Source of the DNA: Rhodospirillales bacterium
GTDB taxonomy: Bacteria; Pseudomonadota; Alphaproteobacteria; CACIAM-22H2
DNA: 33,850 bases
Assembly: GCA_016195145.1 (NCBI GenBank)
Contig: JACQAF010000161.1
Span: forward strand, 1 to 33,850
Direction of reading: 5' to 3'
Under the pieces are notes generated by a model. That model was not told the origin of the DNA and ran no database searches. It saw only the letters and a program-made list of their open reading frames with translations. Made by a program: the position numbers and the translations under genes. Within the stretch, counting starts at the first letter, position 1. Every line of letters begins with the position of its first letter. Shown one piece after another: positions 27,069 through 29,107 of this stretch.

Positions 27069-27098
27069 TTGACAACGTTGCGCGCCGCGCCCTAAATT
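27069..27098 (+). promoter_or_regulatory. sigma70 promoter giving an apparently leaderless transcript
   Basis: TTGACA-N18-TAAATT. ATG27106 follows the -10 after 7 nt, and there is no SD. Confidence 0.6.
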
Positions 27099-27105
27099 CC
27101 GGCCC

Positions 27106-27441
27106 ATGATCCGCAAAGTCATCACGGCGCTGTTCGTCCTCGCGTCGGTACTTATCGGTTTCTCGCCGGTCGGCGCGCCGACCGCGAGCCCGATGGCCGC
27201 CTCTATGGATATGCAGGAACCCTGCTGCGACATTTGCGACCGGCAGGCCATGCCCGAAATGGGGAAGTGTCAGACGATGGCTGTTTGCGTGACTGCGCCG
27301 TCGCCGGTGCTCCCGGACTATGTAGCCGTGCCGGTGCGCTTCTTCACCACCGCCGTACATCCGATGCGGCGGCAGGCGGCGTTGGCATCGGCCGGTTCGC
27401 TGCCACCCTTCCGACCACCGCGATCCTCCCTCCTCGTCTGA
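27106..27441 (+). CDS. Cys/Met-rich exported leader peptide with C-terminal Pro-rich RPPR motif (CutF/CruR/DUF2946-like uORF)
   Basis: Sec-type N-terminus, MDMQEPCCDICD, further Met and Cys, ends LPPFRPPRSSLLV*. Lies directly upstream of cusBA. Confidence 0.72.
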   Translation: MIRKVITALFVLASVLIGFSPVGAPTASPMAASMDMQEPCCDICDRQAMPEMGKCQTMAVCVTAPSPVLPDYVAVPVRFFTTAVHPMRRQAALASAGSLPPFRPPRSSLLV

Positions 27442-27547
27442 GCTGCTGCCTCGGCCGCTTTGCGGCTGAGCGCGAACGCGCGGCTGGCTTGTCGTCGACC
27501 GGACGGCAAACGCCGCGAGCCGCCAACACGTAGTGAGGATTGCAACA

Positions 27548-29107
27548 ATGAGGAAAATCGTTCCGCTATTCGGCGGCGTGGCCACGTTGGTCGCCGCCCT
27601 GCTAATTCTGTTCCCCGGCTTGTCCGGCGCCGCCGCGCAAACCTGGGAAGCCGTCAATCCGCAAATCGCCGTCGGCAAGAACATCCGTCTGGAGGTGAGG
27701 CTAGTGGAGGCCGACGGCAAAGCCATCGCCAGACTCGTCACTGCAAAATCGACACGGCTTGATATGGGGCCAGACGGCATGGCGACGATGACCTCTCGCC
27801 TCAAGCCCGTCGCGACGACGACCTCCGGCGCCCTTGCGTTCGAGACCGACATCGTCATGGCCGGCCGTTGGGCGTTGACCATCAGCGGCACGCCGGCGGG
27901 CCAGTCGACACCGATTTCCGGTATGGTGATCTTTACCGCCACGGAGAAGCGCAGCGAGACGGAACCGCCCGCGGACAAAGCGGCGCCTGCCGAGCGCAAG
28001 CCCGCTTACTACCGAAACCCGATGGGCCTGCCGGACATATCGCCCACGCCCAAGAAGGACTGGATGGGAATGGACTACATCCCCGTCTATGCCGACGAGG
28101 CGAACGATCCGCCCGGCACGGTGCGCATCAGCCTTGCCAAGGTACAGCGCGCCGGCGTGCGCACGGAGGAAGTGACGCGGCGCAATCTCGCGCGCACTGT
28201 GCGCGCCGTCGGCACCATCGAGCCCGACGAGAGCCGCCTTGCCGTTGTAACCGCCAAGTTCGGCGGCTTCGTCGAGGAACTATTCGTACCGGTGACCGGA
28301 GCGTCGGTGCGCGCCGGCGCCCCGCTCATACGGGTGTGGATCGAAAGCACCGAGATTCTGCAGAAGCAATCGGACCTGCTGACCGCCCTGCGCGGTGGGG
28401 CGGGGCGCCCCGAGGACGTGGACAGGGCCGTGCGCAACCTGCGCCTGTTCGGCATTCCCGATCCGGTGATCAACCGCCTGCGCGACACGCGCGAGCCTGT
28501 ACGCTCGATCGTGCTCACCGCGCCCGCGGATGGCACGGTGATGCAGAAACCGGCGCTGGTGGGTATGCGCTTCGCGCCCGGCGACACGCTGTTCAAGACC
28601 GCCGATCTGTCGAAAGTCTGGGTCCGGGCCCAGGTGGCTGAACGCGATTTGGCGTTGGTTCGTGCTGGACAGGGAGTGCGGGTCATCCTGAAGGCGTACG
28701 ACGATCAACCCCGCGACGGCCGGGTTGCCTTCGTTTATCCCGAGCTCGACGCCCCGACACGCACCGCCCAAATCCGGATCGAACTGGACAATCGCGACGG
28801 GGTACTGCGTGCCGGGCTCTACGCCGATGTTGAAATCGACACGCGCTCCGACACGCCGGTGATCGCCATTCCGGACTCCGCCATCATCGACAGCGGCAGG
28901 CGCCGGGTCGCCTTCGTCGCCAAGGACGGCGGCGTGTTCGAGCCGCGTGATCTCCTGCTGGGCCGCCGCGGCAACGGCTTTGTCGAGGTTCGCAGAGGCC
29001 TCGCCGAAGGCGAGCGCATCGTTGTCACCGGCAATTTCCTGATCGACGCGGAGAGCAATCTGCGCGCGGCCCTGGCCACCTTCGACCCGCCGCCGGATGC
29101 GCAATGA
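27548..29107 (+). CDS. cusB: CusB-like RND periplasmic adaptor with fused N-terminal YtkA/FixH-like domain
   Basis: N-domain RLDMGPDGMATM...MAGRWAL; metal-binding YYRNPMG...KKDWMGMDYIPVY; MFP core (TAPADGTV, DLSKVWV, VYPELD..TRT, FLIDAESNL). SD GAGGA precedes ATG27548. Confidence 0.9.
   Translation: MRKIVPLFGGVATLVAALLILFPGLSGAAAQTWEAVNPQIAVGKNIRLEVRLVEADGKAIARLVTAKSTRLDMGPDGMATMTSRLKPVATTTSGALAFETDIVMAGRWALTISGTPAGQSTPISGMVIFTATEKRSETEPPADKAAPAERKPAYYRNPMGLPDISPTPKKDWMGMDYIPVYADEANDPPGTVRISLAKVQRAGVRTEEVTRRNLARTVRAVGTIEPDESRLAVVTAKFGGFVEELFVPVTGASVRAGAPLIRVWIESTEILQKQSDLLTALRGGAGRPEDVDRAVRNLRLFGIPDPVINRLRDTREPVRSIVLTAPADGTVMQKPALVGMRFAPGDTLFKTADLSKVWVRAQVAERDLALVRAGQGVRVILKAYDDQPRDGRVAFVYPELDAPTRTAQIRIELDNRDGVLRAGLYADVEIDTRSDTPVIAIPDSAIIDSGRRRVAFVAKDGGVFEPRDLLLGRRGNGFVEVRRGLAEGERIVVTGNFLIDAESNLRAALATFDPPPDAQ

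Follow-up and report, generated by a model that had tools for sequence, protein, structure and literature searches.

A conserved cysteine-rich leader ahead of cusBA, a candidate CutF/CruR-like translational switch in an alphaproteobacterium

Two small leader proteins that control copper genes, CutF of Rhodobacter capsulatus and CruR (Bp2923) of Bordetella pertussis, are the closest described counterparts of the element analysed here, an upstream open reading frame (uORF) encoding 111 amino acids (aa) that precedes cusB and cusA genes in a contig from a Rhodospirillales bacterium. The window, i.e. the whole stretch of 33,850 nucleotides (nt) that was analysed, is contig C159 of assembly G000 (2.8 Mb in 320 contigs, 83% complete). 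According to the available portions of the published accounts, CutF is a Sec-exported leader with a CxxxC motif and an ...EGPPPRL end, which acts in cis on the next gene; that gene's Shine-Dalgarno (SD) sequence is shielded by RNA structure, which a stalled ribosome is proposed to open (PMC9973294; bioRxiv 10.1101/2025.02.05.636593). A survey reported 5,334 'CutF-like' proteins, whose frequent downstream neighbours include genes of the CusB (HlyD_D23), CusA and CusC types (PMC9973294, as far as its available text goes). CruR belongs to DUF2946 (PF11162), carries CXXC and RAPP motifs 45 residues apart and acts via Rho-dependent termination; in the accessible part of that report copper relieves the stall and represses an import receptor, the signal peptide and EF-P are dispensable, and RAPP is encoded by frequent codons (PMC9426467). 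The kind of switch considered below is already published in the form of CutF and CruR, and a leader ahead of cusB is to be expected from the CutF-like survey.

The leader resembles CutF in being a small ORF (<150 aa) with an export N-terminus, a Cys metal motif, a Pro-rich C-terminal motif beside an Arg, a cis layout and a putative role in copper detoxification. It differs from CutF, as described in the parts of the literature available, in its motifs, which are PPFRPPR and not PPP, and CCxxCD...C...C and not CxxxC, and in the position of the anti-SD, which lies within the last codons of the leader here whereas the CutF stem-loop is described as intergenic. In addition the mRNA is probably leaderless here and the putative target is a resistance-nodulation-division (RND) pump, whereas the target of CutF is a multicopper oxidase; at the sequence level no relationship was detectable, as PF11162 gave no match and hhalign a probability of 4.4%. 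Measured against the features given for CutF-like proteins in the accessible text of the survey (PMC9973294), the leader has the size, the basic and hydrophobic N-terminus, the Cys motif and the Pro-rich tail. It also has the short intergenic distance to a metal-homeostasis gene (typically <100 nt), as a cusB-type gene lies 78-115 nt past the leader in all 11 distinct loci of the family (7 lineages), and in the same 11 loci an RNA structure shielding the downstream SD is predicted. A further criterion of that kind is Cu-dependent, EF-P-sensitive stalling for which the Sec signal is needed. Like CruR, the leader is a uORF that heads a copper operon and has a CxxC and an Arg-x-Pro-Pro-type motif near the C-terminus at a conserved distance from the Cys residues (40-46 residues from the last Cys to the Arg in the leader family, 45 in CruR). 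Unlike CruR, on the published text available, it combines rare codons at the motif with a structured intergenic RNA and an exporter as target, and the CruR family hidden Markov model does not match it.

We propose, with a confidence that falls a little short of the balance of probability, that the leader is a translated, exported Cys-rich leader which controls cusBA through a translation-level switch of the CutF/CruR kind. In this scheme (i) a strong promoter of the sigma-70 type would drive transcription of the leader, cusB and cusA together, the mRNA being probably leaderless; (ii) in the free mRNA the cusB ribosome-binding site (RBS) would be locked by a CCUC-containing tract of the leader's last codons, with two hairpins bringing the strands together; (iii) a ribosome on the 3' end of the leader would hold this tract in its mRNA channel, leaving the cusB site free and cusBA open to translation; (iv) PPFRPPR would slow or arrest the ribosome exactly over the tract; and (v) by analogy with CutF, Cu(I) or Ag(I) held by the nascent chain's Cys cluster, while the chain is coming out via Sec, would prolong the pause and give more pump. 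The arrest, its metal dependence and the sign of that dependence, the Sec dependence and the position of the transcription start site are what we infer. The features involved are collected in Table 1.

Table 1. Features of the leader-cusBA unit, with positions in the window. Abbreviations: GC3, GC content at third codon positions; dN/dS, ratio of non-synonymous to synonymous substitution rates; AF2, AlphaFold2; MFE, minimum free energy.
Feature	Position	Strand	Basis
Sigma-70-type promoter TTGACA-N18-TAAATT (TTGACA 27069-27074, TAAATT 27093-27098)	27069..27098	+	10/12 matches
Leader ORF (uORF), 111 aa, unnamed 'PPFRPPR' family	27106..27441	+	Homologues, GC3, dN/dS; no Pfam/NCBIfam family
Putative export signal or membrane-anchoring segment, roughly residues 1-22 (MIRK and then a hydrophobic stretch)	27106..27171	+	Sequence reading; AF2 helix 2-18
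Cys cluster C40-C41-x-x-C44-D45...C55...C61, putative Cu(I)-binding sensor	27223..27288	+	Column conservation
PPFRPPR, residues 100-106, candidate arrest sequence; R103 = CGA and P104 = CCA, rare codons	27403..27423	+	Conservation and codon use
Predicted anti-SD tract GCGAUCCUC: last base of P105 plus R106, S107 and S108 codons	27420..27428	+	MFE fold; CCUC kept across lineages
Predicted intergenic hairpin 1, 9 bp, loop UUU	27450..27470 (27450-27458/27462-27470)	+	Fold; equivalent in the close clade has 2 compensatory pairs
Predicted intergenic hairpin 2, 6 + 1 + 8 bp	27479..27517	+	Fold; second hairpin in the same place in other lineages
cusB SD GAGGA plus UUGC (GAGGAUUGC), 3' strand of the closing helix	27535..27543	+	GAGGA 8 nt before ATG 27548
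Periplasmic adaptor of the cusB type, bearing an additional YtkA-like domain at its N-terminus	27548..29107	+	HlyD_D23 6.8e-62, YtkA 9.7e-8 (Pfam)
cusA-type heavy-metal RND pump	29104..32253	+	TIGR00914, 1200 bits; start overlaps cusB stop by 4 nt

The leader ORF, cusB and cusA form a three-gene unit in that order, all on the + strand. The leader product had been described as a 111-aa Cys/Met protein with a Sec-type N-terminus, a CCDIC/Met-rich core and a C-terminal PPFRPPR, and each of these is present; the core reads PCCDIC, there are five Cys in all and seven Met past residue 25. The GC3 of the leader (0.79) can be set beside those of cusB (0.81) and cusA (0.80). A phmmer search of all 1.84 billion cluster representatives returned 15 proteins at E<=0.001. 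Besides the query there were 13 small ones, 102-152 aa long and with 36-51% identity, and one of 2283 aa (P0012), which matched in 14 stretches and was excluded from the alignments. Ten of these relatives were examined, and all were metagenome-derived and unnamed or labelled 'hypothetical protein', with no UniProt or NCBI accession. A word-indexed protein search gave no match besides the query, and Pfam and NCBIfam have no family for the leader protein. In whole-genome searches the family turned up in 2 of 50 genomes from the order, and 6 of 401 genomes of the class gave matches, G000 being included in both counts; the other five in the class were the distant members L057-L060 and the spurious L061, which was rejected as it lacks both PFRPP and a downstream cusB. 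A further genome locus, from the same metagenome-assembled genome (MAG) as G007, and ten metagenome loci, one of them spurious, came from pattern scans. L034 was rejected as a chance APPFRPPR in a frame without a leader-like ORF. No family members were found in the plasmid collection (tblastn) or in the viral-contig scan.

With duplicates counted once (L003, L023 and L028 duplicate L024, L026 duplicates L025, L033 duplicates L032, and L029 nearly duplicates L030), the distinct DNA loci number 11 in 7 lineages: the window, L025, a clade consisting of L024, L027, L030, L031 and L032, and the single loci L057, L058, L059 and L060. Within the close clade, dN/dS lies between 0.11 and 0.26 in 10/10 pairs. 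As judged from these comparisons, the leader ORF is a genuine gene under selection.

In the 18-sequence family alignment (A4), in which the proteins are 102-117 aa long and have 4-6 Cys each, the invariant columns are G18, C44, C55, C61, P101, R103, P104 and P105; F102 and R106 are nearly invariant, and C41 is invariant in 15/15 close members. Two further relatives, which are in the 15-sequence alignment A1 and outside A4, are called at 123 and 152 aa and have N-terminal extensions. The distance from C61 to R103 is 40-46 residues in 18/18 sequences, over a linker that is poorly conserved in sequence, and that from C44 to R103 is 57-67 residues. After R-P-P the ORF continues for 2 residues in three sequences and for 6 in the other 15. 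When AF2 was run on the family alignment, the sole confident segment was a helix at residues 2-18 (mean pLDDT 55, pTM 0.23), with pLDDT <50 for residues 23-41 and 56-91. The alignment is shallow, and the lack of a predicted fold is therefore weak evidence.

The motif is also distinguished by its codons. R103 is encoded by CGA in 9/11 loci (5/7 lineages), by AGA in L060 and by CGC in L059, so that a rare Arg codon is found in 6/7 lineages; CGA makes up 0-13% of the Arg codons in the adjacent cusB genes and 4/130 in the cusBA genes of the window. With one locus taken per lineage, 12 of the 26 Pro codons of the motif end in A or T, compared with 14% expected (binomial p = 1e-4), and in the window such codons account for 2/4 in the motif and 0/10 elsewhere in the leader. 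Because PPFRPPR is invariant, encoded by rare codons and held at a fixed distance from the last Cys, it may be expected to slow or arrest the ribosome. At the nucleotide level, the octamer UUCCGACC is nearly invariant, being present in 9/11 loci.

The RNA fold provides the second line of evidence. A 9-bp helix (one pair being G-U) between leader and cusB SD, and a 9-bp hairpin between them, had been predicted, and both appear in the MFE fold of 27382-27562, in which the closing helix GCGAUCCUC/GAGGAUUGC has pair probabilities of 0.98-1.00. In the same fold, a further pairing just beyond that helix joins UUCC of codons F102/R103 (27409-27412) to GGAA of cusB codons 2-3 (27552-27555). The original prediction placed the anti-SD on the RPPR codons. 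This holds for the last base of P105 and for R106; the S107 and S108 codons are used as well, and in other lineages the tract is shifted, ranging from 3 nt ahead of the second Pro codon's first base to 17 nt beyond it. In 11/11 loci the MFE structure puts the cusB SD region (GAGGA, or GGAUCGAG in L060) into a helix with a CCUC or CUC that lies 4-15 nt before the leader stop, and the closing helix encloses at least one intergenic hairpin and usually two. In nine loci most SD bases reach a pair probability of >=0.87; in L058 the values are 0.52-0.57, and in L060 only part of the SD is paired. The residues encoded by the tract differ (R-S-S in the window, L058 and L059, F/L-L in the clade and L-L-G in L057), as do the flanks that extend the core helix, and in L025, whose leader ends RPPRI, the tract falls on the Pro-Pro codons themselves. 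By itself the helix would not stand out; we regard it as above chance because it falls within the final 22 nt of the ORF and comes back in related loci.

Two comparisons across lineages point in the same direction. When tails and SDs were permuted among lineages, only 48 of 5040 permutations gave duplexes as stable as the cognate ones. When the last ten codons were recoded synonymously by local codon usage, CCUC was retained within the last 7 codons in 9-29% of cases per lineage, whereas it is observed in 7/7 lineages. In the close clade, the equivalent of hairpin 1 has two pairs with compensatory changes. The modelling gives a sequestration of the cusB SD by the leader 3' end that is predicted in, and conserved over, all 7 lineages. 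Between leader and cusB there is no intrinsic terminator-like site, and the sole match in Rfam is a chance snoRNA hit (E = 0.38), far under threshold.

We modelled the effect of a ribosome whose P-site holds the second Pro codon by keeping 31 nt, the general size of a ribosome footprint, unpaired. The expectation that keeping the leader 3' end single-stranded would free the cusB SD was borne out in 7/8 loci, in which mean SD accessibility rose from 0.00-0.23 to 0.16-0.58. A footprint placed 45 nt upstream left SD accessibility unaffected.

At the 5' end, the promoter TTGACA-N18-TAAATT is where it had been predicted, with no SD before the leader ATG. It is the sole promoter-like site in 26600-27800 (shuffle mean 0.4), 7 nt separate its -10 box from the ATG, and none of GGAG, GAGG and AGGA occurs in the 20 nt before the ATG. 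In 7/7 close-family loci TTGAC begins 35-37 nt ahead of the leader ATG and is followed, after a spacer of 16-18 nt, by a TA-rich -10-like hexamer that 6-7 nt separate from the ATG. On this promoter geometry, the leader mRNA is probably leaderless. The promoter spacers of the close family are not conserved and therefore hold no shared operator; no operator-like sequence common to them was found. A Pfam scan of the 31 window ORFs of >=90 aa revealed no MerR-type or two-component regulator, in keeping with the original prediction that the window holds no CueR or CusRS gene. A CueR-type gene is present on another contig (C81) of G000.

Several results weigh against the proposed switch and have to be set beside the above. 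In the footprint model the release of the SD is partial, and in L025 accessibility drops from 0.20 to 0.02. A terminating ribosome, at the last sense codon, releases the SD about equally (0.05-0.47); because it covers the same tract with the same modelled release, arrest is not required by the RNA data. This result suits the main rival equally well, i.e. plain translational coupling to a functional small protein, in which the leader would be a working accessory of the CusBA pump, Cys-rich, able to bind copper and either exported or anchored in the membrane, with the role of a CusF-like chaperone or of a small pump-bound subunit. PPFRPPR would be a protein contact motif, and the anti-SD helix would do no more than couple cusB translation to that of the leader, with neither regulated arrest nor metal sensing. 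An accessory metal binder would make sense here, as no cusF or cusC adjoins cusBA in the window, and the conserved Cys residues (five in the leader) and the purifying selection would fit a mature protein. We nevertheless rate this rival as unlikely, if serious: AF2 gave no fold past the N-terminal helix (on a shallow alignment), the linker between Cys cluster and motif keeps its length but not its sequence, and the best-conserved element is a 7-residue motif with rare codons situated 2 or 6 residues from the end, a pattern to be expected of an arrest peptide more than of a surface for binding. The stalled-ribosome switch of the original prediction is thus supported in its architecture (exported Cys leader, Pro-rich motif, anti-SD in the 3' end, cusBA downstream, probably leaderless mRNA) by 11/11 loci and by codon choice, whereas plain coupling explains the RNA data equally well.

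The remaining adverse points concern chance, statistics and transcription. A 9-nt complement of the SD, with Watson-Crick and G-U pairs allowed, arose within 27106-27534 in 201 of 2000 mononucleotide shuffles. The window's own tail/SD pair ranks 4th of 7 in its row of the cognate test, and the recoding test is weak when scored by duplex energy (per-lineage fractions 0.05-0.36, Fisher combined p = 0.03). In the close clade the closing helix never varies, apart from one sequence that breaks a pair, and because it is invariant the clade is uninformative on covariation. Of the features proposed for checking in uORFs ahead of cusB, the Cys motif and RPP tail (18/18) and the SD pairing (11/11) were found, but covariation of the closing helix in the close clade was not. 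The rare-codon and CCUC statistics were chosen post hoc, after the data had been seen, and the rare-codon pattern could also reflect a nucleotide-level constraint on UUCCGACC. The TTGAC(A) geometry is missing from the four distant loci, which also lack a clear SD, and the CueR-type gene elsewhere in the genome leaves room for transcriptional control.

In a different reading the leader is real, yet a C-rich Pro/Ser/Leu tail in GC-rich DNA would give rise to the SD pairing, the promoter geometry and the codon bias as by-products, and cusB would be translated independently and regulated transcriptionally, e.g. by a CueR-type protein such as that on contig C81. GC-rich RNA pairs with almost any SD in silico, as the 10% of shuffles with a 9-mer complement illustrate, and the whole-fold z-scores are modest (-1.95, with 8/200 shuffles folding equally well, and -1.34). 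We consider the by-product explanation improbable, since the pairing partner lies in the same 12-nt zone before the stop in 11/11 loci despite differing tail peptides, and CCUC is kept in every lineage at well above the frequency given by synonymous recoding (7/7 against 9-29% expected per lineage). Nor do the promoters suggest such a regulator: the spacers have no conserved operator and, at 16-18 nt, are not of MerR-type length, which is 19-20 nt.

A switch with the opposite logic can also be envisaged. As in CruR, the ribosome would stall without metal, metal would relieve the stall, and the released ribosome would expose a site of Rho-dependent termination before cusB. CruR is the other characterised member of the kind, going by the available text (PMC9426467), and the leader has a C-rich 3' end. 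We regard this arrangement as very unlikely, as the efflux pump would be turned off as copper rises, which would be maladaptive; the intergenic region has two stable hairpins and a closing helix, unlike the unstructured cruR rut region described in the accessible part of that report (PMC9426467), and the GC skew over 27200-27599 is merely -0.03.

Returning to the proposed CutF-like switch, we examined whether the leader belongs to the same protein family as CruR. At E<=1, PF11162 matched neither the window protein nor 10 other family members; over the whole G000 genome it gave 0 matches, and 20 of 61 related genomes do contain matches. An hhalign comparison of A1 (15 sequences) with A3 (12 DUF2946 proteins from related genomes) gave a probability of 4.4%, with only the N-terminal hydrophobic segment aligned. 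By these searches the leader family is not DUF2946. At the level of single features, the CXXC of DUF2946 is present as C41-x-x-C44. Where DUF2946 proteins have RAPP about 3 residues from the end, the leader has F-R-P-P-R 2 or 6 residues from the end, with the Arg and Pro-Pro present and the Ala/Gly missing, and the CruR distance from CXXC to motif, about 45 to within 1-2 residues in the text available, is not matched by the 57-67 residues from C44 to R103. A language-model search for look-alikes ranked unnamed clusters first; it also returned a cluster that is 22% DUF2946, at 0.94, which serves as a lead only. Because DUF2946 membership fails both the PF11162 and the hhalign test, the leader would work like CutF yet belong to a separate, unnamed family, the comparison with the CutF-like survey being one of published criteria in the portion available. 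G007 carries a leader homologue on its contig C18 (L003/L024) and a separate bona fide DUF2946 gene on C23 (L038), and the two families therefore coexist in one organism.

The motif itself can be compared with described arrest sequences. RAPP-like motifs form an 'RQH' set, (R/Q/H)-(A/G/D)-(P/G/S)-(P/G), which stalls with the third residue in the P-site, and most proteins that bear such a motif do not stall, according to the part of the report available (PMC10987492). R-P-P-R lies outside the RAPP-like set tested there, as its second position is Pro, which counts against an arrest of this type (PMC10987492). In its layout the leader resembles SecM, MifM, VemP and ApdP, each an exported leader with a C-terminal arrest motif at which the stalled ribosome frees a downstream RBS, with the qualification that the motif here is a candidate; in the same accessible text these proteins sense Sec or YidC activity and regulate secA, secDF or yidC, unlike the leader (PMC10987492).

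A literature text search for the motif returned, among the matches listed, only antimicrobial or host-defence peptides and no bacterial leader. Fragments of Bac5 inhibit translation. The hexapeptide PPFRPP is repeated in Bac5-type cathelicidins, and proline-rich antimicrobial peptides act on the 70S ribosome, those of class I binding in the exit tunnel; the binders named in the available text are Bac7, Onc112 and others, not Bac5 (PMC7736402). Unlike the leader, Bac5-type peptides are free mammalian peptides, and in the accessible description the class binds in an orientation opposite to that of a nascent chain (PMC7736402). The resemblance, which is a lead and not homology, suggests that the PPFRPPR stretch may have affinity for the exit tunnel. 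A stronger version of our proposal would make PPFRPPR an independent class of metal-sensing arrest peptide, i.e. leaderless, Sec-targeted, combining a Bac5-like Xaa-R-P-P with rare CGA, CCA and CCU codons, and stalling directly on the anti-SD to turn on cusBA without a protein regulator. This version we hold to be doubtful. If it were true, the CutF/CruR principle would have arisen more than once, and RND metal efflux could be controlled by translation alone.

For copper and silver RND pumps, the control usually described is that by CusRS or by CueR-type transcription factors. If the proposed switch operates, such a pump would gain a regulator-free control that senses periplasmic metal during translation, and the CutF/CruR principle would extend to a family missed by current domain libraries. 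What is new in the family is the invariant PPFRPPR, a conserved use of rare codons where the pause is presumed to occur, and an anti-SD inside the coding sequence, all within a compact leader of about 440 nt from promoter to cusB start. Because the family is rare and known from metagenomes only, the practical impact would be modest unless the motif is a general arrest module.

The downstream genes were assigned by comparison with characterised pumps. The cusB product matches E. coli CusB at 5e-54, with Met aligned at the N-terminal PM and MxM positions, and the cusA product scores 1198 bits to E. coli CusA compared with 573 bits to the Zn pump ZneA. The three metal-site Met positions of E. coli CusA are aligned to Met in the window protein; we take the E. 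coli residues to be M573, M623 and M672 in CusA and M49, M64 and M66 in CusB. By alignment, cusBA is a CusA-type pump with a CusB-type adaptor in which the Met metal sites are kept. The YtkA-like domain (PF13115, 9.7e-8) occupies cusB residues 36-112 (27548-27900) and is absent from E. coli CusB. The N-terminal cusB region (WEAVNP...) is common to the close-family loci, and the cusB proteins of the four distant loci run directly into the YYRNPMGLPD segment.

The surroundings of cusBA are tripartite tricarboxylate transporter genes and not a metal-resistance island: there are two TctA-family genes (12367-14181 and 33503-33850, the second running off the end of the window) and a TctC receptor gene (32510-33472). 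Further upstream of the leader, an ORF with a cNMP-binding domain (21397-21942) overlaps an ORF (21821-22957) with a C-terminal alkylmercury-lyase (MerB) domain (2.3e-31); the two may form a regulator/MerB pair, or may be a single gene in which there is a frame problem. Closer to the leader, immediately upstream of its promoter, lies a low-GC stretch (GC 0.38-0.57 over 24000-26400, compared with about 0.64 for the window) flanked by the two copies of a direct repeat of 139 nt (24771-24909 and 26456-26594, 1685 nt apart), which share 98% identity. The ORFs in this stretch are short, belong to no family and have a GC3 of 0.42-0.51, and the stretch bracketed by the repeats may be the remnant of an inserted element.

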